From an uncultured Actinomycetota bacterium (GTDB taxonomy: Bacteria > Actinomycetota > Geothermincolia > Geothermincolales > RBG-13-55-18), in contig CAYWXM010000032.1 of assembly GCA_964462595.1 (NCBI GenBank), positions 22,465 through 86,464 on the forward strand: a stretch of DNA of 64,000 bases. Direction: 5' to 3'. Shown here in pieces: positions 37,501 to 59,620 of the stretch. A model generated the notes under the pieces. It was not told where the DNA came from. It saw nothing but the letters and a program-made list of their open reading frames with translations, and did not search any database. Numbering within the stretch: position 1 is the first letter of the stretch; the number at the start of each line of letters is the position of its first letter. Position numbers and translations under genes: made by a program.

Positions 37501-37523
37501 CTCACCCTCCTTAATTCAAGGGG

Positions 37524-39098: not shown

Positions 39099-39109
39099 GG
39101 CAAGGCCGG

Positions 39110-41689: not shown

Positions 41690-41845
41690 CATTCCCGAAT
41701 ATTCGTTTTCTGTTGTATATACGCCGGCGAAGCCTTTATTGTTCGCCCGCAAGGAGTGATCGATATGATATGCGTCATTTTGGTAAGCGGGGTCGTATTT
41801 GTCCGCCCGCCACTCGTGGTGGATATTATTCGCGTAATATCTCGC
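41690..41845. promoter_or_regulatory. Promoter/operator region with AT-rich palindromes and ~38-bp imperfect direct repeats
   Basis: Palindromes are cgaatattcg at 41696-41705 and gatatta-ttcgcg-taatatc at 41822-41841. The direct repeats are tattgttcgcccgc... and tatttgtccgcccgc.... The region is upstream of the DUF362/NapH/NapG-like operon. Confidence 0.4.
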
Positions 41846-41890
41846 TTCACCGAAATCACGCGCTTTACCGCGACTTTAACCGGGGCTCGT

Positions 41891-42682: not shown

Positions 42683-44017
42683 TCAGCGCAACGCCTCGGT
42701 GGCGGCCTCGATGCCGCTGCGCAGTGAGCCCTCCACGCAGGATATGAGGTACATATATTCCCCTGCCAGGTACAGTCCTTTCACGTCGCGGTAGTTGTTC
42801 TTGCGCATGTTGTGGATGGCCCTGGCCTGCCCGGGCGGGTCGAGGCAGATAGCCTCGTCCCAGCGCACCGCCTCGGTGATGTAGGGCTCGTCGGGCATGG
42901 TGGGGACGATCATCTGCAGGTCCTTGATCATCATCCTTTTCAGCTCCTCCAGGGGCAGTTCGTTGAGCTCCTTCGCGCGGCGCCCCCAGGTCAGGCTGTG
43001 CACCAGCCCTGCGCCGGGGGGTGAGAAGTAGGGCGACTTGCCGCCCGCATCGGCGAAGCCCGGCTGCATGGAGCCCTCGTTGCGGGAGAAGGTGACGGCG
43101 TACCATCCCTGGGGCAGGAGCCTCTCCTTGAGAGCGAAGATGAAGTGGATGCACGAGCTGTAGGTTACCGTCTCCAGTGGCTTGCGCAGGGTGTCGGGCA
43201 GGTCGGGGATGAGGTGCATGGCGGTAGTGGCGGTGGTGGCGCAGATGACCGCGGCGGCGTCCAGGAACCCCTCCGGCGTCTCTACCCCCTTCACCTTCCC
43301 GCCGTCGATGACCACCTTGTTCACGGGGGTGGAGAGGCGGATGGAGTCCTTGCATTCCTCGTAGAGGGCGGCGGGAAGTGAGCCGATGCCCTTCTTCAGG
43401 AACTTCAATCCCGGCATCAGCCCCATGAGCAGCGCCAGGACGTGCGCCGCCCCCACCTGGTCGGGCTCGCCCAGGGTGAGGGACGCGGTCATGGGCTGGA
43501 ACACGTAGTCCAGGGCCACCTGGCCGCCGTAACGCAGGACGTATTCCTCGATGCTGATATCGCTGAGGTCCAGGACCGGTTCGGGGTCCATGCTCTCGAA
43601 GTCGAAATCCTTCCGCCGCCTGAGCATGTGGTAGCCGACCTTGGCCATCTGGGGATAGCCCTTCCAGGGAAGTCCGCGGAACCTGACGATGTCGCGCCAG
43701 TGCTTTGCAGCTTCCCTGGGATTGATGGTTGCCGGGATGGGGTAGAGCTTGCCGTCCCTCCACATGGCTCCCATGAAATCGAAGCTCTTCACGGCGTCCT
43801 CCATGCCCAGCTCGTCGCAGAGCCGGAAGGTGGTGGTGCAGAGGTCGGCGGAGAACTGCGCCCCCAGTTCGAACTGGTAGCCCTCCTTCTGGTAGCCCCG
43901 CGCGCGGCCTCCCGCCACGTTCCTCTCCTCCAGGCACAGGACGTCCACGCCTTTCTTGCGCAATTCGTAGGTGGCCGCCAGCCCCGCCGGCCCAGCTCCG
44001 ATGACGATGACTTTCAT
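42683..44017 (-). CDS. FAD-dependent amine-oxidase-fold oxidoreductase (protoporphyrinogen-oxidase/phytoene-desaturase-like)
   Basis: MKVIVIGAGPAGLAATYEL...GGRA dinucleotide-binding motif. GGGAGGTAG RBS. Confidence 0.8.
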   Translation of the reverse strand: MKVIVIGAGPAGLAATYELRKKGVDVLCLEERNVAGGRARGYQKEGYQFELGAQFSADLCTTTFRLCDELGMEDAVKSFDFMGAMWRDGKLYPIPATINPREAAKHWRDIVRFRGLPWKGYPQMAKVGYHMLRRRKDFDFESMDPEPVLDLSDISIEEYVLRYGGQVALDYVFQPMTASLTLGEPDQVGAAHVLALLMGLMPGLKFLKKGIGSLPAALYEECKDSIRLSTPVNKVVIDGGKVKGVETPEGFLDAAAVICATTATTAMHLIPDLPDTLRKPLETVTYSSCIHFIFALKERLLPQGWYAVTFSRNEGSMQPGFADAGGKSPYFSPPGAGLVHSLTWGRRAKELNELPLEELKRMMIKDLQMIVPTMPDEPYITEAVRWDEAICLDPPGQARAIHNMRKNNYRDVKGLYLAGEYMYLISCVEGSLRSGIEAATEALR

Positions 44018-44035
44018 TTATCTACCTCCCTGGGG

Positions 44036-45133
44036 TCATATCCTCCCGTAGCCGCTCACATTGACCATGAAAGCTTTGCGCATCAGGAAGCGGTTGAAAA
44101 GAGGCATGAGGGGGAGGACGGCATGCATGGGATACTTCAACACGAGGTCCTGCGGGCTGCGATTCAATATGCGCTTGGCCGCCAGCAGCGGGTAGAAGGT
44201 CCGGTTGATGCGCCGGAACTCGTCGTAAGCCCCCGCCGGGTCGCTGTAGGCGCGCGCCGCGATCTTGCCCGATATGAAGGCGCCGTGCATGCCGAAGAAG
44301 AGCACGGGGTCCATCATCCCGGCCAGGGTACCGGCCAGGATAAGGTCGCCATGGAAGAGCCTGGGGTTGCTGAAACTGGCTATGGGCGCCCCCGCCGCTC
44401 CTCCCTTGGCCCCGCCCCCCAGGGGATAGAACCTCTTGAAGGGATAGCCGTCCTCCAGGGTGGCCGACTCGGCGAACTTCTCCATCTCCCACTTCGCCAC
44501 CGGCCGCTCGCGGTTGAAGATGAGGGCGAAGGCGATGCCGTTAACGGAACAGGTAAAGGCGTAGTCAGGCGTGTAATCGTCGAAGCAGAAGGAGACGCGG
44601 GCTTCCTGCCAGGGCACCCGGCACTTGGCGAAATAGCCGTAGAGGGACTTATAGGGCACGTTGGCCGCCTCGAAGCCGTCGGCGTGCAGGCCGGTGGCCA
44701 TGATGCTCCCCCGCGGCAGCTCGCGTACCTGCTTGTCCGTGATGATGGGCTGATCGAACTCGAACTTGACCCCCTCCTCCACGGCGATACGGTAGAGGTA
44801 ATGGTCCATGGAAGACGCCCGCGGCCCCCGCTCGATCATCCACAAGTCGATATTGGAGGGGAATCTCTGCTTGTAGCGTTTGCCGAATGCCCCGATAATC
44901 CCGTCGTCTATGCGCACCATCGCCGGCTTGAGATCGATGCTCACATAACGGGACATGGCGTCGGCGTCCATGGGCGTACCATGTGGCGAGGGGTTGTAGA
45001 CGGCCAGCCCCCCCACGCGCTTGCCCTTCTCCAGCACGATGACCTCGTGGCCCTCGCGCGCCAGGTTGATGGCGGCGATAAGCCCCGCCAAGCCGGCTCC
45101 CACTACGTGTACCGGACCCTTGTACTTGACCAT
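44036..45133 (-). CDS. FAD-dependent oxidoreductase, geranylgeranyl-reductase-like paralog A
   Basis: GxGxxG N-terminus. GGR-like C-terminal motif region ILAGTLAGMMDPVLFFGMHGAFISGKIAA, where the canonical GDAAG is replaced by GTLAG. Confidence 0.8.
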   Translation of the reverse strand: MVKYKGPVHVVGAGLAGLIAAINLAREGHEVIVLEKGKRVGGLAVYNPSPHGTPMDADAMSRYVSIDLKPAMVRIDDGIIGAFGKRYKQRFPSNIDLWMIERGPRASSMDHYLYRIAVEEGVKFEFDQPIITDKQVRELPRGSIMATGLHADGFEAANVPYKSLYGYFAKCRVPWQEARVSFCFDDYTPDYAFTCSVNGIAFALIFNRERPVAKWEMEKFAESATLEDGYPFKRFYPLGGGAKGGAAGAPIASFSNPRLFHGDLILAGTLAGMMDPVLFFGMHGAFISGKIAARAYSDPAGAYDEFRRINRTFYPLLAAKRILNRSPQDLVLKYPMHAVLPLMPLFNRFLMRKAFMVNVSGYGRI

Positions 45134-45142
45134 CATGCCCTC

Positions 45143-46267
45143 CTAAACGCCGATATATCTGGAATATTTATCCATTTGCTTGAGGAGCTTGTACCCAGGG
45201 ATCATGTTGGCCAGCAGTGCTCCCTGTATCCTGCCCATAGGCTCGTACCTCGACACGTCGCTTATCAGCCTCTTGAGCGCGACCCCCCGCATGAACTCCG
45301 GTGCGTAGTTGATGGCCACGCGGCGGAAAAACCACATGTTGTTGAAGCTGCGGTTGCATACCTCGAACATCTCCTGCGCGGTCGCCTTGTCCTCCAGGGC
45401 TATGGCCGCTATCTTGCCCGAGACCATGGCGCCGTGGCACCCGAAGTAGGTGCCGGGATCCTGGGCCCCCGCCAGCTTCCCCGCCAGTATCTTGTCCCCC
45501 TTGAACAGGCGCGGCTGGTTGGGGTAGCGGGATGCGAAATAACCCCTCTCCGGCCACCAGGTCTTGAACTCCACCCCTTCCGTCTCTTTGATCTGCCTTT
45601 CCCATATATCGCGGTGTTCCTTGCCCACGGGGCGGCGGGCGAAGAACAACCCGGCCACCACGCCGTTGGAGGAGGGAAGGTAGCAGTAATCGCGGGTGTA
45701 GTGGTCGAAATAGACCGAGACCCGCGAGGCCTGCGACGGCACTCCGTGGGGCCTGTACTTTCCGCTGAGCACGTAACCGTAAGCGGTCTCGCGGGGTATG
45801 CCCAGGGCGTCGAAGGCCTCTATGTAGGGGCCCGTGGCCACGATGGTGTTGGGCGGGAACTGGGCCAGGTCCTTCTGGGTCACAACGGGATTCCCCCACT
45901 CGAAGGTCACCCCCATGTCCGCGGCGACGTCGGCGAGGTAGCGGTCGATAGCCGTGCGGCGCGGCCCCCTTTCCACGTTATGCATCTTTGATTGAGCGGG
46001 GTCAAGCGCGCACAGCTTGCCGAAGGCATAGACGTTGAAGCTCTCGCAGGGCCTCACCTGGGGCTCCCCTATGCGTACGCCCAGGAAGCGCGACATCAGC
46101 TCGCAATCGAAGGGGGTCGTGTCCACGAAAGGATGCGCCCCCGGCATGCCGCCCGCGCGGTTGTACTTATCCACGCAGTGCACCTCGTAGCCCATCTTGC
46201 GCGCCGCGATGGCCGCGCACAGGCCGGAGAGCCCCGCCCCGACTATGTTTACTTTTTTCTCAGCCAT
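45143..46267 (-). CDS. FAD-dependent oxidoreductase, GGR-like paralog B
   Basis: Start at MAEKKVNIVGAGLSGL with AAGGAG RBS. C-terminal motif ILAGKLAGAQDPGTYFGCHGAMVSGKIAA. Confidence 0.8.
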   Translation of the reverse strand: MAEKKVNIVGAGLSGLCAAIAARKMGYEVHCVDKYNRAGGMPGAHPFVDTTPFDCELMSRFLGVRIGEPQVRPCESFNVYAFGKLCALDPAQSKMHNVERGPRRTAIDRYLADVAADMGVTFEWGNPVVTQKDLAQFPPNTIVATGPYIEAFDALGIPRETAYGYVLSGKYRPHGVPSQASRVSVYFDHYTRDYCYLPSSNGVVAGLFFARRPVGKEHRDIWERQIKETEGVEFKTWWPERGYFASRYPNQPRLFKGDKILAGKLAGAQDPGTYFGCHGAMVSGKIAAIALEDKATAQEMFEVCNRSFNNMWFFRRVAINYAPEFMRGVALKRLISDVSRYEPMGRIQGALLANMIPGYKLLKQMDKYSRYIGV

Positions 46268-46473
46268 TTGCGCTCCTTCACTATCGGTTATCCGGGAGAC
46301 CGGGCCGGTACTGTATAGAGGAACCCCCTGCTTCACCGCTACCCTTTAACCGTCCTCCACCATGTTCTTCCCGTCTCCATCCGTTTCCCCGTGCATGCCC
46401 CGCGCGCGAGGCCGCGGTGTCTTGTCCGCCATAGCCTCTTTCCCGTCCGGCCGCAAATCGAAATCGACGCCGC

Positions 46474-47535
46474 CTAGTAACGGCCGAAGCCGGGCAGGGA
46501 TTTAAGGGCCACGTCTATCGCCGGTTGCAGCAAGCGTGGCTGCTTCACATACATGCCGAAACCAAGCCTCAGCCCCAGGTTGCGCAACACGTGGGGCTGG
46601 GCATCGAAAAACTTTTTATACAGCCAGGAGTACTTGCGCGCGGACGTAAAGGCGCGGAAGAGCCTCCAGGCCCTTTCCCTGTCGTCCACGGCCATGGCCG
46701 CTATCTTTCCCGAGACCAGGGAGCTCTGCACCCCGAAGAGGAAGAAGGGGTCCTGCATTCCTGCCAGCGTGCCCGCCAGGATCTTTTCGCCGGCATAGAG
46801 GCAGGGGTCGCTGATCTTCCTCGTCGCCACCACGCCCTCGTGGGGCAGCCACTGCTCGAATTCAATTCCCTCCCACTCCCGCAGCTGGCGGTCCCATTCG
46901 TCGCGCAGGGAAGACCTGACCGGCCTGCCGTCGAAGGCCAGAGCGAAGGCCACGCCGTTCACGTTGGCGCAGTAGTTGTAATACCTGGTGCAGCGGTCGA
47001 AGAAACCCATGATGCGGGGCGGGCCTTCGTGGCGCGTCTTCCCGATGAAACCGTAGACGTCAACGTACGGGCGCCTCAGGGCCAGGAAGGGTTCGACGTG
47101 AAGGCCGGTGGCCACGATGGTGTTGGGGGGCAATTGGGCGAAGTCCCCCTGGGAATCGCAGGAGACCCCGAACTCGAACTCCACGCCCGAGGCGAGCGCC
47201 TTTTCGTACAGCAGGGTATCGATAGAGGTGGAGCGGGAGCCCCTTTCCACGGAGTGGAGGTAGAGCTGCCGGCCGGGGACGACGTGGGGTTTGCCGTAGA
47301 CGTAGATGGGGAATTCCTCCGTAGGAGTCACGTAGGGTGGCTGCAGCTCTATGCCGATCAACCTCCCCAGCCTCTCCGGATCCATGGGCGTGACGTCCAC
47401 GGCTGGACGGATATAGGGATCGCCGCCGATGCGTTCGAACTTCTCGAGTACTTTGACCTGGTGGCCGGCCGCCGCGCAGTTTACCGCCGCCACCAGGCCC
47501 GCCAGGCCCGCTCCCACGATGGTGACTTCCGCCAT
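46474..47535 (-). CDS. FAD-dependent oxidoreductase, GGR-like paralog C
   Basis: MAEVTIVGAGLAGL. C-terminal motif ILAGTLAGMQDPFFLFGVQSSLVSGKIAA. Confidence 0.8.
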   Translation of the reverse strand: MAEVTIVGAGLAGLVAAVNCAAAGHQVKVLEKFERIGGDPYIRPAVDVTPMDPERLGRLIGIELQPPYVTPTEEFPIYVYGKPHVVPGRQLYLHSVERGSRSTSIDTLLYEKALASGVEFEFGVSCDSQGDFAQLPPNTIVATGLHVEPFLALRRPYVDVYGFIGKTRHEGPPRIMGFFDRCTRYYNYCANVNGVAFALAFDGRPVRSSLRDEWDRQLREWEGIEFEQWLPHEGVVATRKISDPCLYAGEKILAGTLAGMQDPFFLFGVQSSLVSGKIAAMAVDDRERAWRLFRAFTSARKYSWLYKKFFDAQPHVLRNLGLRLGFGMYVKQPRLLQPAIDVALKSLPGFGRY

Positions 47536-47832
47536 TTTTCCCCCTTCGCGTCCCGCCCCTGCCTCGTGAACATTCCGCGCGACACGGGTTGCGCCGCCCG
47601 CCGGTCCCTGCGGCCGGCGGGCGACATCTAAACCCAGAATCGCCGTTTTCCGGCTCCCCGGGATGAGGTCCGGCCTGCGGCTTGTCCGCGCGCCGCAGTC
47701 TCCGTTATCCCCTCTTCCCGGATCCCGCCGATACTCTATCGCATCACCTCCTCGGCTCCCAGCCGGCGATGAGGCCGGCTTATCCGGATAGAAAACCGTT
47801 ATCGAACCCCGTACGAGCTCTCCGCTCCTCTC

Positions 47833-49476
47833 TTACAGGGTGAGCTTCTTGTTTAAACCGGTGTCGTAATCCCACCTGCGGGCGGCGATATTGTTGGGGT
47901 CCACCGCCTTCTTGAAGCCCACCATAGCGTCCGTGAAGGCCGCGGCATTAGGCATGGCCAGGGTCATGAGGTCATCCAGGGTGGGCATCCCCTCCGGCAG
48001 CGGCAGGGCCATGCCCTTGTTGAGGGGTATGGCGCCTGCAGCCAGGACCAGGCCCTCGCCCAGGATACCGGCCATCATGGCGCGCATATAGGTCATGAAC
48101 ATGCGCATGTTGTCGTCCTTGTCGCCCTGGTTGGAATAGAGGTCGTATTCCATGTACGCCGAGCGCCCCATGTGGTACGGCTGCAGGTAGGTGGAGGCGT
48201 CATCCGGCGGCAGGTTGTCCTCGGTGTGCCCGGCCTGGTTGGTGGTCTCCACGCGCATCCTGCGTTCCGCCTGCAGGAAGTTGTCCAGGTGGCCGATGAG
48301 GGCCCCGATTAGGAAAGACCCGCGCACGCGCATCACGCGCACGGTGACGTTGAAGAACTTCTGCCAGCGCTCGAGGTTTACGCTGCGCAGGTCGCCCACC
48401 AGGTCCTCCATGGCCTCCACGGGCAGGAACTCCCAGGTGGGGTCGATATCCAGGATGACTTTCTTGAACACCTCGGCCTTGAGCATGGCCTCCTCCATGG
48501 TCGTGCCGGCGAAGATGGAGAAGAGGTTGTTGCGCGGGAAGGAACCCGCCAGCGCGCTGGCGTGCTTGTTGGTCTCGGCCACGAAGATGCCGAAGAAGGA
48601 GTTCTGCATGTGGGCCAGCTCCAGGGTGAGGTTCTCGTTGGCCACCTTGTAGAGGACCTCGATCACGCATTCCAGGTCGTCCTTCTCATAAGCTGGGAAT
48701 ATCTGGAATATATTCTCGGCCTCGGGGTAAATGCGCAGGGTCATCTCGGTCACCGTGCCCAGCTGCCCGTAGGCGTAGCGGAAGAGCGAGGCCATGTCCG
48801 GTCCCGGCCCGGGCACGTGCGCCTTCACCGCGCCGTATGCGGCGGGCCCGGTCTTGAGGATGGTGCCGTCGGGCATGACCATGGTCATGTCGACGATGTT
48901 GTCGATACCGAAACCGTACTTCGACGCCAGGGTATTGATGTTGCAGAAGGCGTGGTTGGAGATAACCCCGGCCGTGGCCGCCGTCGAGGGGTTGAGCACT
49001 CGGCACCCCACCTTCTGGGCTTCCACCTGGGCCACGAGGTAATTGATCCCGGGCTGGATGATCATGTAGCAGTTCTCGCCGTCCACCTCCAGCACCTCGT
49101 CCATGCGCCTGAGGTCCATGATGATGCCGCCGAAGAGGGGGATGTGCAATCCCATGGTGGTGAGGCCGGTGCCCATGGGGATCACGTCCACCTCGCATTC
49201 GTTGGCGACGCGGTAGACCTCGGCCACGTCCTCGGTGGTCTTGGGCAAGACCACGAGATGAGGGTAGCTGGCGGGCAGCGGCCCCTGGTCACGGGAATAG
49301 CCTATGAGGATCACCGGGTCGTCTGTCACCCATTGCTCGCCCAGTATGCCGGCGAGCATCTCCTTGGCCCGGGCCACTCCCTCGGGCTTGTTGTGCCGGG
49401 GCTCCGCCTCGTGCTGCATGATGATACCGGAGATCCGCCTGTCCTTGATGTCCTTGGCGATATCCTTGGTCCACAT
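47833..49476 (-). CDS. FAD-linked oxidase (PCMH/VAO-type FAD-binding domain)
   Basis: FAD_binding_4-like N-terminal half. AAGGAGGTG RBS. Start 4 nt after the CCG-protein stop. Confidence 0.8.
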   Translation of the reverse strand: MWTKDIAKDIKDRRISGIIMQHEAEPRHNKPEGVARAKEMLAGILGEQWVTDDPVILIGYSRDQGPLPASYPHLVVLPKTTEDVAEVYRVANECEVDVIPMGTGLTTMGLHIPLFGGIIMDLRRMDEVLEVDGENCYMIIQPGINYLVAQVEAQKVGCRVLNPSTAATAGVISNHAFCNINTLASKYGFGIDNIVDMTMVMPDGTILKTGPAAYGAVKAHVPGPGPDMASLFRYAYGQLGTVTEMTLRIYPEAENIFQIFPAYEKDDLECVIEVLYKVANENLTLELAHMQNSFFGIFVAETNKHASALAGSFPRNNLFSIFAGTTMEEAMLKAEVFKKVILDIDPTWEFLPVEAMEDLVGDLRSVNLERWQKFFNVTVRVMRVRGSFLIGALIGHLDNFLQAERRMRVETTNQAGHTEDNLPPDDASTYLQPYHMGRSAYMEYDLYSNQGDKDDNMRMFMTYMRAMMAGILGEGLVLAAGAIPLNKGMALPLPEGMPTLDDLMTLAMPNAAAFTDAMVGFKKAVDPNNIAARRWDYDTGLNKKLTL

Positions 49477-49480
49477 ACCC

Positions 49481-50701
49481 CTACACCTCCTTGCCCAGGG
49501 ACGCGAGTAAGACCTCGGCCAGGTCGTACACCTTCATCTTGCTCCCCGCGGCCTCCACCGCCTGGCCCAGCATCTGCACGCAGTAGGGGCAGCTGGTGAC
49601 GATGGCCTCCGCGCCCGTCCATTCCGCCTCGAAGAGCCTCTCCTTCGCCGTCGCCAGGGCGTAATCCGGGAAGGCGTAGCGCACGCCGCCCCCGCCGCCG
49701 CAGCAGAAGGAATTGAAGGTGGCGCGGGGGAACTCCAGGAGTTCCAGCCCCGGTATCGCCCGGAGGACCTTGCGCGGGGCCTCGTATATGTCGAAGCGCC
49801 GACCCAGCTTGCATGGGTCGTGATAGACGGCTTTTATGGCTACTTCCTTCTCTGGCGTCAGCTGGTTCTTCTTGAGCAGCCGGGAGAGGAGCTGGCTTAT
49901 CTGATATACCTTGATGGAGGGGTCCAGCTCGCGCGCGTACTCCTCCTTGAACACCCAGGCCGCGTGGGTATCTGGCGTGACGATCGTATTAACCCCCAGC
50001 GAGTTGAAGGTCTCGATGTTGGCGGCGGCATAATCCTCGAAGAAGTCGCGGTCGCCCAGCATGAGCATGAGCGCGCCGTCGCTTATCTCTTCCGCCCCCA
50101 GTATGCCCACGTCCAGGCCCGCGTCCAGGAGCACCTGGGCCGCGGCGCGCGCCGCGTGGCGCAGGGAAGGGTCGCTGGTATAGGCGTCTCCGGCGTAGAA
50201 GAGCACCTCTGCCTTCTCCTCGGGCAGCTTCTTCAGGGCCAGCCCCTCGGCCCAGTCGCCGCGCTTGCTCCTGTCCATGCCGAAGGGGTTGTCGTTGGCC
50301 TCCAGGCTCTCGAACAGCGGCGCGTGCTCTGGCATGGGGCCCCATCCCTCGCGTACCGCCTTCTCGCGCATGAGCTCGAAGACGCGGGTGGGGTGGAGCT
50401 GTTTCACCTCGTAGCACTGCTCCTGACACGAAGAGCACAGCATGCAGGTGTAGAGTATGTGCCGCATGGAATCGCTGGGCTCTATCTCGTTGATGTGCAG
50501 TCCGCGGGCTATCTCCATCTTGCCGGAGGCGTAATAGGCATCCCAGCGGAAATAGGAACCGGAGGGGCAATTGCGCCAGAAACGCGACTCGGGGCAGTAC
50601 TGCACGTGCACCCCCTGGCATATCTTGCACTTGGTGCAGATGAAATAGTCCTGCTGCAGCTCGTGCAGCACCTCCCTGGGAGCGGTTATCTTCTTCTTCA
50701 T
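49481..50701 (-). CDS. (Fe-S)-binding protein with two CCG domains (GlcF/HdrD-like)
   Basis: CxxCxxCxxxCP ferredoxin motifs near the N-terminus. CCG-domain signatures (CCG...C) in the C-terminal half. Confidence 0.85.
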   Translation of the reverse strand: MKKKITAPREVLHELQQDYFICTKCKICQGVHVQYCPESRFWRNCPSGSYFRWDAYYASGKMEIARGLHINEIEPSDSMRHILYTCMLCSSCQEQCYEVKQLHPTRVFELMREKAVREGWGPMPEHAPLFESLEANDNPFGMDRSKRGDWAEGLALKKLPEEKAEVLFYAGDAYTSDPSLRHAARAAAQVLLDAGLDVGILGAEEISDGALMLMLGDRDFFEDYAAANIETFNSLGVNTIVTPDTHAAWVFKEEYARELDPSIKVYQISQLLSRLLKKNQLTPEKEVAIKAVYHDPCKLGRRFDIYEAPRKVLRAIPGLELLEFPRATFNSFCCGGGGGVRYAFPDYALATAKERLFEAEWTGAEAIVTSCPYCVQMLGQAVEAAGSKMKVYDLAEVLLASLGKEV

Positions 50702-50704
50702 CTT

Positions 50705-52102: not shown

Positions 52103-52234
52103 CGACCTACCTCCTTGCCGTTAAGACCTGGGCCGATCCACGCTGTGGATGTATCCCATCTCCCAGCTTTATAAAGTCCCCATTTGCATACATTCGCGAG
52201 ATGTTATATATGTTATTCTGAACGACTGGTCAGT

Positions 52235-52270
52235 CACAACCGAGTCAATTATATTTCCGACCCGGTTGAG
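52235..52270. promoter_or_regulatory. Imperfect inverted repeat cacaaccgagtc-N12-gacccggttgag in a divergent promoter region
   Basis: Lies between the divergently transcribed GlcD-like operon and GGR-like paralog D, in an AT-rich 270-bp gap. Confidence 0.3.
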
Positions 52271-52369
52271 TGTCAAGGCGTCCGGGCAGGGAAACAGTAG
52301 CGTTTAGCCAGGTAAAAAGGCTATAATACATTTTCGACATAAAGTCAGAAAAGTGTAAGGAGGGATATA

Positions 52370-53443
52370 ATGGCTGAGGTGACCATCGTTGGGGGAGGGC
52401 TGGCGGGCATGACTGCCGCCATCAACCTTGGCAGGCGCGGGCATGACGTGGTTGTGCTGGAGCGCGAGGAGCGAGCGGGAGGTTCACCCCTCTACCACCC
52501 ATCCGGGCAGGGTACCCCCCTGCGCCTCGATGCGATGCGCGCCTACATAGGCTTCGACATCTCGCCGGGCATAGAGCCGATACGCGAGATGAGCGAGATA
52601 GCGGGGGGCAAGGAGATTCTCATCGACCCCTCGCTCATCAACTCATATTTCTTCGAGCGCGGGCCGAGGTCGACCAGCCTCGACAGTTACCTTTACGAAC
52701 TGGCAGGCGAGGCCGGAGTAGAGGTCCGCTTCGGGTCTCCCGTCACATCCCAGGAGGACATGGCCCAACTGCCCCCCAACACCATCGTGGCTACCGGCCT
52801 GCACTTCGAGGGGTTCGACGCCCTGAGGCTGCCCTATCTCACCTCGCACCACTTCACCCATAAAGGCACCTGCGATCCCGACCTCAACTACGTGCACATG
52901 TTCCACGACACCTTCACCAGCGATTACGGCTACACGTCAGCTTTCCGCGGCATCCGCTACGTGCACCTCTTCAATCGCAGGAAGCCGATATCGCTTGCCG
53001 ACCGGGAGCGCTTCGCGGAACGCGTGGCGGCCTTTGACGGCTTCGAGGTTCCGGAATGGAACGAGTTCACCTTTCCCGTGCCTGCCGCCTGCCTGAGGAC
53101 CCCGCGCATATACGTGGGCAGCAAGATCCTGGCCGGCACCCTGGCCGGGGCCATGGATCCCGTGGCATTCTTCGGGCTGCACGGAGCCCTGGTCTCGGGG
53201 AAGATAGCGGCCCTGGCCGTCGAGGACAAGGAGCGCGCCTGGCGCGAGTTCCGCAGGTGCGTTTCCTCATTCCCCACCGCTTACATCCTCTCGCGCCTGA
53301 AGGAAATGCAACCGCTCCCCTTGAGCGTGTTGGGCTTCCGAATCGCATTCCAGAACTTCAGCCGCCTGAAGCTGGTACAGAAGATGATGCAGGTGGGCCT
53401 GCCAGGATACAAATGCCTGAGCGTGCAGGGGGTCAGGTCTTGA
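52370..53443 (+). CDS. FAD-dependent oxidoreductase, GGR-like paralog D
   Basis: AAGGAGGG RBS. MAEVTIVGGGLAGM. C-terminal motif ILAGTLAGAMDPVAFFGLHGALVSGKIAA. Confidence 0.8.
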   Translation: MAEVTIVGGGLAGMTAAINLGRRGHDVVVLEREERAGGSPLYHPSGQGTPLRLDAMRAYIGFDISPGIEPIREMSEIAGGKEILIDPSLINSYFFERGPRSTSLDSYLYELAGEAGVEVRFGSPVTSQEDMAQLPPNTIVATGLHFEGFDALRLPYLTSHHFTHKGTCDPDLNYVHMFHDTFTSDYGYTSAFRGIRYVHLFNRRKPISLADRERFAERVAAFDGFEVPEWNEFTFPVPAACLRTPRIYVGSKILAGTLAGAMDPVAFFGLHGALVSGKIAALAVEDKERAWREFRRCVSSFPTAYILSRLKEMQPLPLSVLGFRIAFQNFSRLKLVQKMMQVGLPGYKCLSVQGVRS

Positions 53444-53554
53444 TTGTTGCATTTTATGCATCGACAAAGCTGATGACTTCCCTGCTCGCAAAGGGTGTAT
53501 ATGGGATATTTTACTAATAGATACCAGGGTATGCAAAAAACAAGACCTGACCCC
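53436..53554. repeat. Inverted pair of the GGGGTCAGGTCTTG... repeat forming a potential ~120-nt stem-loop (14-bp perfect terminal stem)
   Basis: 53436-53468 ggggtcaggtcttgattgttgcattttatgcat and 53529-53554 gtatgcaaaaaacaagacctgacccc. The stop codon of paralog D lies inside the left arm. Confidence 0.75.
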
Positions 53555-53581
53555 ATAGACGCATAGGTGGAGGTGTGAGAA

Positions 53582-55084
53582 ATGGCTGGAGATAACAGGA
53601 AGGTCATCGTCATCGGTTCCGGGCCCGGGGGTACCAGCGTCGCGGCGCTGCTGCAGGCACGTGGCTGGAGCGTAACCCTTCTGGACCGCAACGAGTTCTA
53701 CGGCGGCAAGTGCTGGTCTTTCACGCGCGACGGTTACGTGGTCGACTCCGGGGTGCATATGTTCTCCATGGGCGCGTCAGGCCAGTTCGGAGACGTCAAC
53801 CGCATGGTGCGTGGCGACCTGGAATGGCTGACCGCCAATCCCAGCGAGCATCTGCTGCTGGGCGGAAAATACCGGCTCAACCTGTACCAGAGCCTGACCG
53901 ACCCCCGCGGGGCGCTGTCTAACTTGCGCGCTAACATGCTCATCGCCAAGGACCGTGCCAAGGGCATGCTATCGGGCGGGGAAACAAGGAAGAACCTCGA
54001 CGCAGAGGTCTACCGCGCCTCGAAAAAGAACTCCCCCTTGGAGACCCTGCGCGCGGTGGCCAAGATAGCTCTCCTCAACCCCTCCTACCTCGCGGAGCTG
54101 GACGAGATAACCATGCAGGAGTTCATGCACCGTATTATCGATGACTGGACCCCGCTGCAGGGCATCGCCGCCCTCTCCATGCTCCTCACCGTGGTCCCCT
54201 ACGAGGAGGTGAGCGCGGGCGAGTTCCTGTGGTGCTTCGCCAACGCCTTCCGCAAGCAGACCCTGGGGGTCCCCCGCGGCGGCTCGCGCGAGATACCGGG
54301 CGCGTTCATGCGCGCCTTCCAGCGGGACGGAGGGGAGATGCGCCTGGGCTGCGAGGTGGCGCGCATCATCGTGCGCGACGGCAAGGCGCGCGGGGTGTTT
54401 ACCGTCGGCGGGGAGCAGATTGACGCGGACCTGGTCATCTCAAGCGCCGGCATCAAGCGCACCCTGGAGATGGCCGGGGAGGAGAATTTCCCGCCGGAAT
54501 ACGTCTCTTACGTGAAGGGGCTCAAGTATTCCCGTTCCTTCATAACCACCAAGTACGGCCTGGACAGGAGGGTGGTGGACCTTCCCGCACCGGGCTTCTT
54601 CAACATCCCCAAAGTCAACCCGGACCACATGTTCGACTATATCGAGGAGGGCGGGGTGCCCGAGGATCCCTTCCTCTTCACCCCCTTCCCCTCCGAGTGG
54701 GACCCCTACGCGGCCCCGCCCGGCAAGCAGCTCATCCTCTGCGGGGTACCTGGTCCCATCGAGGTCAACAAGGAGAACGTGGCGCAATGCGAGCGCATCC
54801 TGGACCGCGCCGAGGAGAGGCTGCTCGAGATATTCCCCCAGATCTCGAACCATATCGAGTGGAAGATGCGCACCCACATCGCGCACACCGCCTTCATCAC
54901 CGGTAAACCCACGGGCGAGTGCATCGGCCTGGCCCAGTGCGTCGGCCAGACAGGGGTGCACAAGCCCACGCCCTGGACGCCGGTTAAGGACCTGTGGCTG
55001 GTGGGAACGGACGCCGGGGCCCGCGGCGTGGGGACGGAGCAGGCTGCCGGGAGCGCCATATACGTGACCAACCTGCTGGGTTGA
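53582..55084 (+). CDS. Phytoene-desaturase (CrtI) family FAD-dependent oxidoreductase
   Basis: KVIVIGSGPGGTSVAALL...GG N-terminal motif and CrtI-like length. GGAGGTG RBS. Confidence 0.85.
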   Translation: MAGDNRKVIVIGSGPGGTSVAALLQARGWSVTLLDRNEFYGGKCWSFTRDGYVVDSGVHMFSMGASGQFGDVNRMVRGDLEWLTANPSEHLLLGGKYRLNLYQSLTDPRGALSNLRANMLIAKDRAKGMLSGGETRKNLDAEVYRASKKNSPLETLRAVAKIALLNPSYLAELDEITMQEFMHRIIDDWTPLQGIAALSMLLTVVPYEEVSAGEFLWCFANAFRKQTLGVPRGGSREIPGAFMRAFQRDGGEMRLGCEVARIIVRDGKARGVFTVGGEQIDADLVISSAGIKRTLEMAGEENFPPEYVSYVKGLKYSRSFITTKYGLDRRVVDLPAPGFFNIPKVNPDHMFDYIEEGGVPEDPFLFTPFPSEWDPYAAPPGKQLILCGVPGPIEVNKENVAQCERILDRAEERLLEIFPQISNHIEWKMRTHIAHTAFITGKPTGECIGLAQCVGQTGVHKPTPWTPVKDLWLVGTDAGARGVGTEQAAGSAIYVTNLLG

Positions 55085-55268
55085 TGAGTCGTTATCAATC
55101 GCAGTGTAATCGCCGCGTGGATTCGGCGTTATACTTATCGTAAGCCGGCAAATGCGGCGCGCCCGGAGCGCAACCGTTCATAGTATAGCGATTCGATCGT
55201 CAAAGATACGGGTATATATACTAACGGTGGGTCTTACGAAAAGAGGAAGCAAAGAACAGGGAGGGCAG

Positions 55269-56354
55269 GTGAAATACCGCCGCTGCAAGGTGTGCGGCGT
55301 CCCCCGGCGCATAGGGAACGTACATCATTGGATGAACAACGGCACCATCGTCAATGCGCGCGTGCCCAGTATCCGGCAAGTGTTCATGGAGGCCGATTTC
55401 CTGCCGGAACTCCGGCAGCTTATCTCTGACGGCCTGGGGTTTCCCGTCAACCGTATCTTCTACGAGGCCGAGCGCAACTCGGTACGCATAACCGTGGAGG
55501 CCTTCCTGCAGGGTCCCCTGCTGAGGATCGCCTCGCGCATCCCCATCTTCCGCAGGGCGGCGGTGCATTACTTCAATAACCTGGCATGGCAGACGGGCAC
55601 CGCAAATTCCAGGACGGTGGGATATCGCTCCGGCAAATACGGGCTGGCGCTGATGCATAACCCCTTCGACCTCGACCTCATGGCCGCGGTGGTGGTGGGG
55701 GCCTTCGAGGCCCTGGAGAGGAGGCCTTTCCGCTCTTTCTGGAAAAAAGAAAACGGCGCTTACCTGCTGCGGGTGGAGGCAGCGGACAAGCCGGAGCTGT
55801 CGGGGCGCCTCGAAGTGGAAAGGGAAGTGCTGAAGGAGGGGAACCTGCGCCTGCATTCCTGCCCGTGTTGCGGATTGCCCCTTGAGTTGAGCCATATGGA
55901 ATGGTGCGAGGAGGAAGGGATCATCATCGACCGCCGGCGCGGCATCCGCATGATCAACCTGGACGGATACACCCCGCGCCTGGTCAACCGGGAACTGGTG
56001 AGGGAGCTGGGCGAGTCCGTGATCCCCATCATCATCGACGCCAAGCGCGAATATACCCTCAAGATGCTCGAGGACCTCGGGGTGCGACCAGGGGTGGAAG
56101 GGGAGATGCGGCAGGAGCTGCTCGACGATATGCTATCGCTCCTGCCCCTCTACGGTTGGGGCATGGCCACGGAAACGGAGTACCTGCCCGGCAGCACCCT
56201 GAGGGTGTGGGTGGACAATCCCCTGGACGAGTACCTCATCGCGGGCAGGCTCGCGGCTTTCTACGAGACCGCCGAGGGTAAACGGGCGCGGGTGGAGTGG
56301 AGAGAGGCCGGGTCCTCCAGCATCACCTATATACTGGCCCCCGCCCGGGAATAA
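55269..56354 (+). CDS. Hypothetical protein with N-terminal CxxC and central CPCC cysteine clusters
   Basis: GTG start preceded by GGGAGGG (track ORF 55152..56354). No recognisable domain. Confidence 0.45.
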   Translation: MKYRRCKVCGVPRRIGNVHHWMNNGTIVNARVPSIRQVFMEADFLPELRQLISDGLGFPVNRIFYEAERNSVRITVEAFLQGPLLRIASRIPIFRRAAVHYFNNLAWQTGTANSRTVGYRSGKYGLALMHNPFDLDLMAAVVVGAFEALERRPFRSFWKKENGAYLLRVEAADKPELSGRLEVEREVLKEGNLRLHSCPCCGLPLELSHMEWCEEEGIIIDRRRGIRMINLDGYTPRLVNRELVRELGESVIPIIIDAKREYTLKMLEDLGVRPGVEGEMRQELLDDMLSLLPLYGWGMATETEYLPGSTLRVWVDNPLDEYLIAGRLAAFYETAEGKRARVEWREAGSSSITYILAPARE

Positions 56355-56376
56355 GTCCGTACGGGTCAGCCCGCCT

Positions 56377-58197
56377 TCATATCTCCAGTTTCGCGGATGG
56401 CACGCGACCCTCGGGATCCAGGCCGGAAAGCTCGTATATCTCGGCGAGCATCCTTTCCATGTTGGGCACCGAGCCGGCGTTTACCCCCTCCTCTGTCGGG
56501 GTCAGGGCCTTGGGGGGCAGGACGTCGTCGTCGCGCCCTGAGCCGCGCAGGTTGAGGATGTGCCGCTTGAGGTACCAGATGCGCCAGCCGCACTCCATCA
56601 GTTCGTCCAGGGTCCAGTCAAAACCAGTGGCGGCGCGCATCATATCCACCTGGTCTTCCAGGGAGAGGAAGGCGCCGATGAACTCGCACATGCACAGCGA
56701 GTTGAAGAGCTGCCCTACGGCCAGGCATTTCCAGGTTATACCGGCCTTGCCCTTGCTGGTCATGCCCCTGTAAGGACCCTTGAGGCCTATCTCGGGCCAG
56801 GAGCCCATGCCCCCCTCCACCAGCAGGTTGACGGAGTTGAGGTGACAGGCGCCGCGGGTGCCCATCACGTAACCCAGCCCGTAACCGTGGAAGCCGCGCG
56901 GGTCGTGGGCGGGAAAATCCATGCCGCGCACGGTGACCGCGAGCTCCGGCGCACCCAGCTCCGTGGCCAGCGCGAGCGAACCCTGGGCCATACTCTCTCC
57001 GAAACCCTCGCGGGCCGCGGTGAGCCGGATAGCCTCCAGGGCCGCCTCCATGTTCCCCCAGGAAAAATCCAGGCCGGTGCGGTCCTGCCCCGCTATGCCC
57101 TTCTCCTGGGCCTCCATGAGCACCGCGATTATCGATCCCATGGCGATAGTATCCATGCCCAGGCGGTTGCAGAGGTCGTTGGCTTTAGCCACCGCTTCCA
57201 GGCTGGGGTTCATGAGGTTGGTGCCCATCATGCACACCGTCTCGTACTCCGGACCGGCGTGCTCGTGCATGGCATAAGGGCCTTCGTCCACCTTTACCAC
57301 GCGCTTGCAGCGTACGGGGCAAGCGTAGCAGCCTATTATCTTCACCAGGATGTTGTCGTTGTAATAGAAGGAATTCAGGGTATCGAGGGAATCGATCCAC
57401 TCGCCCACGCTCCAGTTCTTCACCGGCACGTCGCCCGAGAACATGCCGGTGTCCAGGGCTCCGTTGGTCCCCAGCTCGTGCAGGGTACCGGCGAGGATGT
57501 GGCCCTTGAGCTTTTCCGCAAGTCGCTTGCTGATATCCCTGGCCGCTTCCGGGTCCGCATAGCCCATCTTGCCGCCACCGCGCACCGCCACCGCCTTAAG
57601 GTTCTTCGAGCCCCTCACCGCCCCCAGGCCGCAGCGTCCGGCGACGCTTCCGATCTCGTTTACTATGGCCGCGAAGCGCACCCCGTTCTCCCCCGCGGGC
57701 CCGATCTGCATGGTGCGCACGGCACCCCCGTCACCCTTGAGTTCCCCCTGCAGGCGCTCGTCGGTCTCGTAGGCGTCCAGGCCCCACAGGTGGGAGGCGT
57801 CCCGGATCTCCGCCTTTTCTCCGTCCAGCCAGAAATACACCGGCCCCGCCGCCTTGCCGATGAACACGATGCCGTCGTACCCGGCCTGCTTCACGCTCGC
57901 CCCGAACGAGCCCACGACGTTGCACTCCCCCCACAGGCCGTTCAGGGGAGACATGGCCACCACCGAGGACCTGCCGCTGCCGGGAAAGCTGCTTCCGGTC
58001 AGGGGGCCATCCATGAACATTAGGGGATTATCGGGCGAGAGGGGATCCACCAGGGGGTCCATCTCCTTGATAAAAAGATAGGCGGCAAGACCGGTGCCGC
58101 CGACATACTTGCGGTACAGCTCCTCCTCGAGTTCCTTCACCATTACCGTTCCGGTGCCCATGTCGACATGGAGATAACGCGCGGCAAAACCTTTCAT
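56377..58197 (-). CDS. aor: Aldehyde:ferredoxin oxidoreductase (tungsten-containing AOR family)
   Basis: AOR N-terminal domain. GGGAGGA RBS. 606 aa. Confidence 0.9.
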   Translation of the reverse strand: MKGFAARYLHVDMGTGTVMVKELEEELYRKYVGGTGLAAYLFIKEMDPLVDPLSPDNPLMFMDGPLTGSSFPGSGRSSVVAMSPLNGLWGECNVVGSFGASVKQAGYDGIVFIGKAAGPVYFWLDGEKAEIRDASHLWGLDAYETDERLQGELKGDGGAVRTMQIGPAGENGVRFAAIVNEIGSVAGRCGLGAVRGSKNLKAVAVRGGGKMGYADPEAARDISKRLAEKLKGHILAGTLHELGTNGALDTGMFSGDVPVKNWSVGEWIDSLDTLNSFYYNDNILVKIIGCYACPVRCKRVVKVDEGPYAMHEHAGPEYETVCMMGTNLMNPSLEAVAKANDLCNRLGMDTIAMGSIIAVLMEAQEKGIAGQDRTGLDFSWGNMEAALEAIRLTAAREGFGESMAQGSLALATELGAPELAVTVRGMDFPAHDPRGFHGYGLGYVMGTRGACHLNSVNLLVEGGMGSWPEIGLKGPYRGMTSKGKAGITWKCLAVGQLFNSLCMCEFIGAFLSLEDQVDMMRAATGFDWTLDELMECGWRIWYLKRHILNLRGSGRDDDVLPPKALTPTEEGVNAGSVPNMERMLAEIYELSGLDPEGRVPSAKLEI

Positions 58198-58315
58198 GCT
58201 TTTCCTCCCACTACAGGCTGATTACCCTTCACCCAGGGTCCTTCTCCACGGGCCGTCGCGGCCACGTGTCCCCGTTCCTCTGTCTCCCCCTGCCTCCCCG
58301 CCTTACCGCAAGCCT

Positions 58316-59176
58316 TCAGGCCCCCGGCCTATCGCTGGCCGGGGGCCTGACGCCCCAGACATAGACACAAGGCAGTATATCGCGGTAGGAAGGTTTGAGT
58401 GACTGCGCGGCCAGCCGCCGCGCCACCCTCCTGATCTCATCTTCGGACGCACCGTGCCCGCGCCAGCAGGCCGCCAGGCTGAACTCGCCGGGCAGACCGC
58501 TTTCGAACTCCTCCAGGGCTTCCTCCTCGCCAGCGAAGGGGCGGGTCACATCCGCGTGCCAGGTGAACGAGTCCACATCCTCGAAACCCGCCTCGACGAC
58601 GGCCTTCACGAGATCCGTGCGCTCGAACGAGTATGCCGGGTGCTGCCTTTCCAGGATCTGGCGCAGCTTTGCCCAGAGATAGGCCTCGTCTCCCCAATCG
58701 AGGGTCAGTTCCTCCTCCAGGAGAACCGGCTCGAAGATTGACAGTACGCCCCCGGGGCGCAATACGCGCGCGGCCTCCCGCAGTACGCTCGAGAGGTCCG
58801 GCATGTAGCTCAACACCGACCTCGCCACCACCGCGTCAACCGCGCCCACGTCCAGTGGCACGCTGGATATATCGGCCCGCAATGTGCGCAGATTGCCGAG
58901 ACCCATCTTCCCGGCCCTGTCCATCAGCTTATCCAGCGCCTCCGGGCTGGAGTCCACCGCGAACACCAGCCCCTCCGGCCCCACCAACCGGGCCGCTTCG
59001 AGTGATAGAAACCCCATGCCGCATCCCAGGTCCAGCACCCGGGAACCAGCCTTCAGACCGGCCTTGTGCACGACGCGGTCCCTCACCTGCGAACGAAGTA
59101 TACGCAGCTGGCGGTCGCCCGCGGCTCCCTCGCCGTCCGCTTCATCCAACCACTTAGCCCAGATGTCTGCCGGCAA
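58316..59176 (-). CDS. Class I SAM-dependent methyltransferase
   Basis: VLDLGCGMGFLS motif I. Confidence 0.8.
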   Translation of the reverse strand: MPADIWAKWLDEADGEGAAGDRQLRILRSQVRDRVVHKAGLKAGSRVLDLGCGMGFLSLEAARLVGPEGLVFAVDSSPEALDKLMDRAGKMGLGNLRTLRADISSVPLDVGAVDAVVARSVLSYMPDLSSVLREAARVLRPGGVLSIFEPVLLEEELTLDWGDEAYLWAKLRQILERQHPAYSFERTDLVKAVVEAGFEDVDSFTWHADVTRPFAGEEEALEEFESGLPGEFSLAACWRGHGASEDEIRRVARRLAAQSLKPSYRDILPCVYVWGVRPPASDRPGA

Positions 59177-59185
59177 TGCTGCGGG

Positions 59186-59620
59186 TCAGTCCTCCTCTTC
59201 CTCCTCGATGATCAGGTCCTCCAGGCCCTTCTCCTCGAGAAGTCCTGTATAGATATCGTAGGCAGGCTTGATCACGGGTAGCATCTTGAGCAGTTTCGGC
59301 ACCGAGCCCTCGGCCTGGATCTCCCCGCTGGAAAGGGCTCCCAGCAGGTTGAGCTGCCCGCACCAGAAAACGTGTGCCGTATCCAGTTCCATGGACAGGG
59401 TCGCATCGGGCTCCAGCTCCTCGGGCGGCCCGCCGGGATATACCTTTACCTCATCTCCCCTGCAATCGATCCAGTATTCACCCACCGGGTTGACGTAGGC
59501 GAACTTGACCAGCAGGTTGGAATCCAGGGCCTTCTGCCGGATGGCATCGTCCTTCATCAAGGTATCGAACACCGCCACCAGCAGGTCGTAGAACACCTGG
59601 ATATCTTCGAAATACGGCAT
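59186..59620 (-). CDS. SCP2 sterol/lipid-carrier domain protein
   Basis: SCP2-like fold sequence with acidic C-terminal tail. GAGGAGGAG RBS. Confidence 0.7.
   Translation of the reverse strand: MPYFEDIQVFYDLLVAVFDTLMKDDAIRQKALDSNLLVKFAYVNPVGEYWIDCRGDEVKVYPGGPPEELEPDATLSMELDTAHVFWCGQLNLLGALSSGEIQAEGSVPKLLKMLPVIKPAYDIYTGLLEEKGLEDLIIEEEEED

Follow-up and report, generated by a model that had tools for sequence, protein, structure and literature searches.

The stretch of DNA considered here, 64,000 nucleotides of contig CAYWXM010000032.1 (assembly GCA_964462595.1) and called the window throughout, belongs to an uncultured member of the Actinomycetota. The closest named relatives of its proteins come from Candidatus Solincola tengchongensis, Ca. 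Geothermincola primus and secundus, and metagenome-assembled genomes labelled 'Geothermincolia bacterium', whose taxonomic home is the class Ca. Geothermincolia in the phylum Actinomycetota. Most of the window has a GC content of 60–65%. An anaerobic host is suggested by its gene content, since this includes an aldehyde:ferredoxin oxidoreductase (AOR), HGD-D proteins and many iron-sulfur proteins. Positions 42683–59620 hold a cluster of 13 genes, about 17 kb long, in which nine genes encode flavoproteins. Four of these are paralogues of each other with the fold of geranylgeranyl reductases (GGRs), and they represent a rare branch of GGR/PHBH-fold flavoproteins (PHBH, p-hydroxybenzoate hydroxylase) that has lost a canonical aspartate and is accompanied by an unprecedented set of partners. 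Together with these partners they probably modify a long lipid chain.

Three of the four paralogues follow one another on the minus strand, namely A (44036–45136, 366 aa), B (45143–46267, 374 aa) and C (46474–47535, 353 aa), while D (52370–53443, 357 aa) is encoded on the plus strand. The open reading frame of B extends further, to a GTG start at 46336; gene callers place the start at 46267, which gives the 374 residues. Over their full length the four share 36–42% identity, with B and C at 42%, A and D at 38%, and pairwise BLASTP E-values between 1e-55 and 1e-85. This likeness is far beyond chance. A preliminary description of this DNA had listed these four paralogues and most of the genes around them; every gene that it named is present, and all 13 genes were found at the stated coordinates.

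How large is the family to which they belong? An exhaustive profile search of 1.84 billion representative proteins retrieved 129 representatives at E<=1e-30 and 428 at E<=1e-10. Their source annotations are generic, either 'FAD-dependent oxidoreductase' or 'NAD(P)-binding protein'. The preliminary description had considered that the paralogues might fall inside a well-characterised family; in Pfam, NCBIfam and the PDB sequence profiles, they match in the first ~40 residues only, that is, in the dinucleotide-binding or Rossmann motif. Against the GGR superfamily model TIGR02032 (GG-red-SF), which has a cutoff of 158.8 bits, the four score 43.2, 32.2, 24.3 and 34.8 bits, and PF01494 (FAD_binding_3) covers residues 2–45 only, at or under its cutoff, with no full-length match. 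A literature search on Geothermincolia and on GGRs in connection with heterodisulfide reductase, SCP2 or UbiA returned no description of the family, its fusions or the cluster. Judged by sequence, the paralogues lie outside every characterised family.

An AlphaFold2 model of paralogue D, built from an alignment of 26 sequences, has a mean local confidence (pLDDT) of 92.9 and a predicted TM-score (pTM) of 0.92. Its best solved match in Foldseek is the Thermoplasma GGR Ta0516 (3oz2, E 5e-16), and its highest query TM-score is to the Sulfolobus GGR 3atq (0.68). The model thus has the two-domain GGR/PHBH FAD fold, including the N-terminal GxGxxG, which takes the form of an invariant VGxGLxG. In canonical GGRs, the aspartate of the GD motif (GDAAG/R) contacts the ribityl chain of FAD, and Cys47 of the Thermoplasma enzyme adjoins the flavin. 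The four paralogues instead conserve ILAG(T/K)LAG..DP..FFG.HGA.VSGKIAA, which reads AGKLAG in paralogue B, and which profile alignment places opposite MLVGDAARLIDPITGGGIANAIVSGMYAA of 3oz2. In an hhalign comparison of the family profile with the exact 3oz2 sequence (260 columns, E 7.8e-5, probability 61.5%), GTLAG stands opposite GDAAR and the downstream DP...G...SG..AA block is retained. The altered GDAAG motif that had been pointed out earlier is thus real, and not one of 95 family members carries the aspartate.

The name 'GGR-like reductases', under which the paralogues were first described, can be kept in part. Their similarity in fold to 3oz2 stands, but membership of the GGR family does not, because the hallmark motifs are absent and the TIGR02032 scores of 24–43 bits remain far below the cutoff. 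They are relatives of GGRs by fold and not members of the GGR family as defined. Neither do they belong to the group A flavoprotein monooxygenases of the PHBH type, for which the GD aspartate is lacking and the PF01494 match is partial. A function as O2-dependent hydroxylases was rejected on these motifs and on the gene content, which appears to be that of an anaerobe.

Beside paralogue C and on the same strand lies a second module of three genes. The first encodes a VAO/GlcD-type flavoprotein of 547 aa (47833–49476; FAD_binding_4, 79 bits; VAO, vanillyl-alcohol oxidase), the presumed catalytic subunit of a dehydrogenase. Its similarity to D-lactate dehydrogenase, glycolate oxidase and VAO/PCMH enzymes (PCMH, p-cresol methylhydroxylase) is confined to the FAD domain, no FAD-oxidase_C domain was detected in it, and its 139 detected relatives all come from the same Actinomycetota lineage. 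The third is a degenerate VAO-type paralogue of 465 aa, here VAO2 (50705–52102; a very divergent FAD_binding_4 protein), which shares 23% identity with the 547-aa protein across 441 aa and reads SVRREK in place of the Gly-rich FAD loop GTGLTT. VAO2 is probably a flavin-free partner subunit, a pseudo-enzyme in the role of GlcE. In an unclassified bacterium (locus L014) VAO2 and VAO are fused as one protein of 980 aa.

Between these two genes lies that of an iron-sulfur protein of 406 aa (49481–50701) with Fer4 and CCG domains (CCG, 73.9 bits), homologous to the soluble part of EtfD, HdrD and TfrB. Its best PDB match is the soluble part of mycobacterial EtfD (9ojn, 126.7 bits), and its best NCBIfam model is TfrB, at 151 bits and under the cutoff of that model. 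In EtfD, electrons delivered by a flavoprotein travel through two [4Fe-4S] domains and two CCG domains (PMC13083937). The cluster protein contains two CxxCxxC...C motifs and one complete CCG motif (C297, C333, C334, C371, C374), while its first CCG domain has no cysteines. No transmembrane segment was found along its 406 residues, and it is predicted to be soluble. The three genes have the architecture of the glycolate oxidase GlcDEF, yet they stay below every equivalog threshold (GlcD 80.5 against 567.9 bits, GlcF 28.6 against 333 bits).

The two strands diverge at an intergenic control region (52103–52369) with promoter matches in both directions. A perfect sigma-70-type TTGACA-17-TATAAT on the minus strand (52276–52248) faces the VAO2, CCG and VAO genes, and a weaker match on the plus strand (52227–52255) faces paralogue D. 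A short inverted repeat, GACTG-GT-CAGTC, lies at ~52225–52236, near the minus-strand promoter consensus. An Rfam search of 34–61 kb, this region included, found no riboswitch or other Rfam element.

Downstream of paralogue D on the plus strand follows a CrtI-family flavoprotein of 500 aa with the amine-oxidase fold (53582–55084). Its residues 8–493 align to positions 1–482 of 504 in TIGR02734, thus over the full length, at 92.6 bits and below the family cutoff of 238.1; its nearest solved relatives are the uncharacterised archaeal oxidoreductases 3ka7 and 3nrn and the CrtD-like desaturase 4rep. A second flavoprotein of this fold, PPOX-like (protoporphyrinogen oxidase) and 444 aa long, stands at the other end of the cluster (42683–44017, minus strand). 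It matches Pfam Amino_oxidase along its full length with 167 bits and stays under the cutoffs for PPOX, HpnE and PRK07233. The plus strand further encodes a lineage-specific Cys-rich protein of 361 aa (55269–56354), which is outside all Pfam and NCBIfam families.

The remaining three genes are on the minus strand. The first encodes the AOR, a tungsten-type enzyme of 606 aa (56377–58197) that reaches both domain cutoffs, with 245 bits for AFOR_N (PF02730) and 356.5 bits for AFOR_C (PF01314), and is below the PRK09849 equivalog cutoff. The second is a class-I S-adenosylmethionine-dependent methyltransferase of 286 aa (58316–59176; Methyltransf_31/25/11), which resembles UbiE and ArsM, misses every equivalog cutoff and has RebM and MitM as its nearest solved relatives. 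The third is an SCP2-like lipid-binding protein of 144 aa (59186–59620). It scores 19.9 bits against Pfam SCP2, where the gathering score is 21.3; many of its orthologues carry a precomputed PF02036, and all six of its PDB profile matches are SCP2 domains, though at E 0.15–0.57. Among 5.8 billion proteins only 75 homologues were detected, on the same contigs as the paralogues, and the protein is confined to genomes that carry the cluster.

Is this gene set held together by evolution? Loci from other genomes, given here by L numbers, were compared by means of gene tables and a tblastn map. One and the same arrangement recurs in seven loci across Geothermincolia genomes at 50–90% identity, so that the chance juxtaposition of these genes can be rejected and the neighbourhood, whose conservation had been in question, is maintained. 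On one strand A, B and C, at times with extra copies of B or A, are followed by the VAO, CCG and VAO2 genes (547, 406 and 465 aa); on the opposite strand D stands with the CrtI-like gene, and the methyltransferase and SCP2-like genes come next. Orthogroup A is present in L004 and L006–L009 (57–87% identity), orthogroup B occurs in duplicate in L006 and L007, and orthogroup C is found in L004–L009. In a rough neighbour-joining tree the paralogues fall into four orthogroups with at least one gene per genome in each, from which it follows that the fourfold duplication is older than the sampled diversity. By this tree, the paralogues are ancient copies.

Other parts of the cluster are conserved to different degrees. 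The pair of D and the CrtI-like gene occurs in L005–L009, L013 and the distant L015, and a family member accompanies a CrtI-like enzyme in these loci and in L094. The methyltransferase is conserved in L004–L007 and L013. The PPOX-like gene is an accessory member: it is present in L009, replaced by a different amine oxidase of 509 aa in L005, and missing from L004. AOR, a frequent accessory gene, lies inside the cluster in four loci; it is present in L006, L007 and L013 and absent from L004 and L005. The Cys-rich protein appears in the closest relatives only (L001, L009). More distant genomes retain sub-modules, with two family members plus VAO and CCG genes in fen Actinomycetota (L010/L011), a family member with the fused VAO2-VAO, a CCG protein and a CrtI-like protein in the unclassified bacterium of L014, and a family member with a CrtI-like protein in L015.

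The strongest clue to the substrate is provided by gene fusions in distant members of the family. In several lineages the family domain forms the C-terminal half of proteins of ~610 aa, with a UbiA prenyltransferase as the N-terminal half. Ca. Saccharimonadaceae and others have longer fusions of ~1000 aa, in which a glycosyltransferase of family GT21 comes first, UbiA second and the flavoprotein domain last. The UbiA domains of these fusions resemble archaeal and chlorophyll-synthase-type prenyltransferases and not MenA. UbiA-family enzymes are paired with GGR-type reductases in the pathways of chlorophyll, tocopherol, menaquinone (MenA/MenJ) and archaeal lipids. The fusions recur in clusters (L088, 4915–11908; L090, 7856–13066) together with KASIII/OleA-like proteins, an OleD/HpnA-like reductase or a radical-SAM enzyme, and an FtsX/ABC transporter, which may constitute an undescribed glycolipid pathway occurring in Saccharimonadaceae.

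A further hint comes from an archaeon, Ca. Syntrophoarchaeum sp. GoM_oil (L095). There, three canonical GGRs with GDAAG and a YxWxF-type motif are followed by a family member without the aspartate as the fourth gene of a tandem array (4485–9020), and 6 kb downstream an unfused pair of GT21 and UbiA genes (14926–17020) contains the same domain pair as the bacterial fusions. Other members have further kinds of neighbour. A ferredoxin-domain (Fer4) protein of 365 aa adjoins the members in L014 and L093, the two copies being 33% identical, and these loci also hold PlsC-type acyltransferase, MMPL, DUF1302 and DUF1329 genes and, in L014, a PaaK-like ligase. The Cys-rich protein of our cluster was considered as a counterpart of this Fer4 protein and dismissed, as the two show no similarity. 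In a Desulfobacteraceae locus (L012) the member lies among HGD-D, CoA ligase, SCPx-type thiolase and short-chain dehydrogenase/reductase (SDR) genes with an adjacent ferredoxin, and L094 encodes an Ltp2-like thiolase, two ChsH2-DUF35 proteins, MaoC, two CrtI-like enzymes, a thioesterase and a CoA ligase. Long hydrophobic chains are the common theme of all these contexts; several indicate prenyl chains specifically, and iron-sulfur proteins turn up in them repeatedly as partners.

What do the findings shown so far, on gene content, paralogy, fold, lost motifs, synteny, fusions and gene neighbourhoods, tell us about function? We tentatively propose, as possible rather than probable, a soluble or peripheral multi-flavoenzyme system for the iron-sulfur-driven redox tailoring of a long hydrophobic chain, most likely the stepwise hydrogenation of C=C bonds and most likely of an isoprenoid (polyprenyl) chain. 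We infer its substrate class, its reductive direction, the physical coupling of its modules and the role of each enzyme. The SCP2-like protein would hold the lipid, and the four paralogues would act as reductases on it, either with distinct positional specificities or as a hetero-oligomer. Positions beyond their reach might be desaturated, isomerised or saturated by the CrtI-like enzyme and, where present, the PPOX-like one, before the methyltransferase as finishing enzyme would modify the product. Electrons would enter in a GlcDEF-like manner: VAO and the flavin-free VAO2 would oxidise an alcohol, a 2-hydroxy acid or a similar donor, and the EtfD/HdrD-like protein would relay the electrons to the reductases by way of two cubane clusters and one noncubane CCG cluster. 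A link to aldehydes and ferredoxin may be added by AOR in some genomes. The GGR of Methanosarcina requires a dedicated ferredoxin, and TfrAB, in which the CCG subunit TfrB supplies a C=C reductase of the flavoprotein type, offers a precedent.

The idea of an isoprenoid or lipid tailoring system, already voiced in the preliminary description, gains independent though indirect support from the UbiA fusions, the archaeal GGR array, the co-distributed SCP2-like protein and the lipid-type contexts elsewhere. It is not backed by the genes next to it: no prenyltransferase, polyprenyl synthase or phytoene/squalene synthase is encoded in the window or in any Geothermincolia locus. Several other observations weigh against the proposed hydrogenation of polyprenyl chains. 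Foldseek ranks group-A flavin monooxygenases nearly level with GGR for the model of paralogue D, so the fold is GGR/PHBH and the chemistry is left undecided by the fold alone. At the position of the GD aspartate, the 95 family representatives have T in 61 cases, S in 17, A in eight and K in one, and never D. In the hhalign comparison with 3oz2, Cys47 has no counterpart, a conserved YHPS..GTP standing there, and neither has YxWxFP, with YIWVFP of 3oz2 opposite NGI.FAH.F; alignment confidence is low at both places. The substrate domain of the 547-aa protein is poorly modelled by AlphaFold2 (pLDDT 62.6), and Foldseek ties this protein between D-lactate dehydrogenase (D-LDH), representing 2-hydroxy-acid dehydrogenases, and the 4-alkylphenol oxidases (VAO/PCMH). 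The methyltransferase is not diagnostic, as it resembles ArsM, UbiE, RebM and MitM, all below cutoff. Finally, the closest non-fused members by BLAST identity (L012, L014) and the member in L094 stand among CoA ligases, thiolases and hydratases; these contexts look catabolic, and the substrates might be acyl-CoA instead of prenyl compounds.

This last point leads to a different scheme, which we regard as somewhat unlikely, namely that an exogenous lipid, unsaturated and branched, is made ready for anaerobic degradation by the enzymes of the cluster. Phytol, isoprenoid alcohols or acids, and the side chains of carotenoids or of steroids and hopanoids would be candidates. The VAO-type enzyme would oxidise the alcohol and AOR would turn the aldehyde into the acid, double bonds would be removed or shifted by the GGR-fold and CrtI-like enzymes with SCP2 as the carrier, and beta-oxidation would be encoded elsewhere. 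The thiolases, ligases and SDR of L012 and L094 fit this scheme, as do the PaaK-like ligase and the DUF1329 proteins of L014, which are uptake-type lipoproteins, the position of AOR within the cluster in four loci, and an HGD-D pair and CoA ligases elsewhere in the window. SCP2/SCPx serves the oxidation of branched-chain (phytanic and pristanic) acids in eukaryotes, which counts in the same direction. The conserved Geothermincolia core, however, includes no CoA ligase, hydratase or thiolase, and neither the AOR nor the HGD-D genes are conserved with it. Moreover, the core is vertically conserved across the class amid housekeeping genes, which fits a constitutive cell function, and its conserved methyltransferase would be unusual for catabolism.

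A third account starts from the quinone pool. Actinomycetota commonly have partly saturated menaquinones, MK-n(H2–H8), and the paralogues could be functional analogues of MenJ that saturate specific isoprene units of a menaquinone-type side chain, with a UbiE-like methyltransferase acting on the ring and the CCG protein exchanging electrons with the pool. The methyltransferase and a second one in the window (35240–36067) do resemble UbiE/MenG with 46–77 bits, but the cluster enzyme is far under the MenG and UbiE cutoffs and finds its best matches among ArsM-like proteins. Likewise, the best solved relative of the CCG protein, EtfD, is an ETF:menaquinone oxidoreductase (ETF, electron-transferring flavoprotein), but the CCG protein has no counterpart of the membrane haem domain that links EtfD to the quinone. 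Fusions to UbiA, the superfamily of MenA, do occur in the family, but their prenyltransferase domains resemble the archaeal and chlorophyll-synthase kind, and no men or mqn genes lie nearby. We consider this account quite improbable.

Least likely of all, and in our view very improbable, is an anaerobic metabolism of aromatic or phenolic compounds in which the PCMH/VAO-type enzyme hydroxylates an alkylphenol, AOR oxidises the aldehyde and PHBH-fold proteins act on rings. In its favour, the 547-aa enzyme matches D-LDH and the group of pinoresinol hydroxylase, PCMH, VAO and eugenol oxidase about equally well, aromatic hydroxylases are also among the structural matches of the paralogue model, and AOR, BCR/HGD-type genes, a PaaK-like ligase and Amidohydro_2 lie within the window. 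Against it, hydroxylases of the PHBH type depend on O2, and the paralogues lack their DG/GD motifs. Moreover, the aromatic-type genes are not conserved beside the core, and the scheme would leave unexplained the fusions to UbiA, the tandem GGR array of the archaeon and the presence of SCP2 as a partner.

Returning to the tailoring of polyprenyl chains, a bolder version of it can be formulated, which is doubtful at present. The GGR-fold proteins without the aspartate would form a new class of iron-sulfur-dependent polyprenyl reductases, and in Geothermincolia four paralogues with GlcDEF/HdrD-like electron input and SCP2 would fully saturate and methylate an isoprenoid chain. If so, deep-branching anaerobic actinobacteria would make saturated isoprenoid lipids or cofactors, archaeal-type or otherwise unknown, by an unrecognised enzyme machine. 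Should the tailoring reading itself hold, it would add a previously unmodelled branch of the GGR superfamily, able to bind or use FAD in the absence of the canonical GD aspartate, and lipid C=C reductases that are fed via a VAO-type pair and a CCG protein and not by ferredoxin or NAD(P)H. It would also point to an unknown lipid or cofactor chemistry in uncultured anaerobic Actinomycetota (Geothermincolia) and, through the fusions with UbiA, in further lineages, Saccharimonadaceae among them. Saturated isoprenoids serve as biomarkers and bear on the 'lipid divide' between bacteria and archaea, which would make a bacterial source relevant to geochemists. Tailored isoprenoids are also produced with GGR-type enzymes, and four position-specialised paralogues would be useful tools for this. 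Should the cluster be catabolic instead, it would be among few candidate routes for anaerobic isoprenoid breakdown. There is a good case for something new and coherent, with a function read solely from genomic inference.

The surroundings of the cluster add a few observations. Directly downstream of the flavoenzyme run and on the same strand (39110–41627, minus) lie three genes for a NapG-like ferredoxin with the twin-arginine signal GRRDFL, a NapH-like membrane polyferredoxin (Fer4_5) and a DUF362 protein with the twin-arginine signal DRRKFL. The trio looks like an extracytoplasmic redox module, and it is not conserved beside the core in L004 and L005. Further along the minus strand (35240–38783) are two HGD-D subunits, HadB-/BcrB-like and below cutoff, with an open reading frame of 37 aa between them, and the second UbiE-like methyltransferase. 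No activator ATPase was found within 10 kb of the HGD-D subunits; the Desulfobacteraceae locus L012, too, has an HGD-D gene beside its family member. An extension of the cluster over this whole region (35240–42256, same strand), which would take in a response regulator, DUF362, the NapGH-like genes, both HGD-D subunits and the second methyltransferase, was considered and not adopted, as these genes are absent beside the core in L004 and L005. Outside the cluster, a complete VAO-type gene with FAD_binding_4 and FAD-oxidase_C (10675–12375, minus strand, 566 aa) adjoins one for an SDR/peptidase_S15 fusion protein of 968 aa. Positions 1–10000 of the window have a GC content of 46–47%, against 60–65% in the rest, and contain a defence-type island of McrBC-like genes (MrcB_N/AAA_5 with DUF2357/PDDEXK_7), HEPN and nucleotidyltransferase pairs and PIN/RHH toxin-antitoxin genes, which was probably acquired horizontally.

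How does the cluster compare with known systems? The CrtI, CrtD and CrtISO enzymes share the amine-oxidase fold with the 500-aa protein, which aligns along the whole of TIGR02734. It differs from CrtI in its score below the cutoff, in nearest solved relatives (3ka7, 3nrn) that come from non-carotenogenic anaerobic archaea, and in having no phytoene synthase gene near its own. MenJ, which saturates one isoprene unit of the menaquinone side chain in mycobacteria, is likewise an Actinomycetota flavoprotein of the GGR superfamily, but it is a canonical member of the GGR family, encoded by a single gene without VAO, CCG and SCP2 partners.

The electron module has two relatives. With GlcDEF glycolate oxidase it shares a set of three genes for a VAO-type flavoprotein, a second VAO-type subunit and an iron-sulfur/CCG subunit. 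In contrast to GlcDEF, the trio is far below the equivalog cutoffs, its 547-aa protein has no FAD-oxidase_C, its second subunit is without the FAD loop, and one of its two CCG motifs is intact. With EtfD (the Rv0338c family, 9ojn) and TfrB/HdrD, the CCG protein shares two [4Fe-4S] motifs, the CCG noncubane motif and presumably the exchange of electrons with a flavoprotein. Unlike EtfD, it has no membrane and haem domain, its partner flavoproteins are different, and the linear [3Fe-4S] site is missing because the first CCG domain has no cysteines.

The closest likeness is to the archaeal GGRs (digeranylgeranylglycerophospholipid reductases; Ta0516/3oz2 and Sulfolobus 3atq), the best structural match. 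They have in common with the paralogues the two-domain FAD fold, the N-terminal GxGxxG and the DP...G...SG..AA block, and in both cases iron-sulfur partners are encoded alongside; links to UbiA prenyltransferases exist in other lineages of the family. In contrast to the archaeal enzymes, the family has neither the GD aspartate nor equivalents of Cys47 and YxWxFP, and scores 24–43 bits on TIGR02032, where 158.8 are required. While an archaeal GGR is one enzyme, the Geothermincolia cluster has four fixed paralogues. And where an archaeal GGR is served by a simple ferredoxin, as with the GGR of Methanosarcina and its dedicated ferredoxin (MA1484/MA1485), the electron partner in the cluster would be a CCG protein together with a VAO-type pair.

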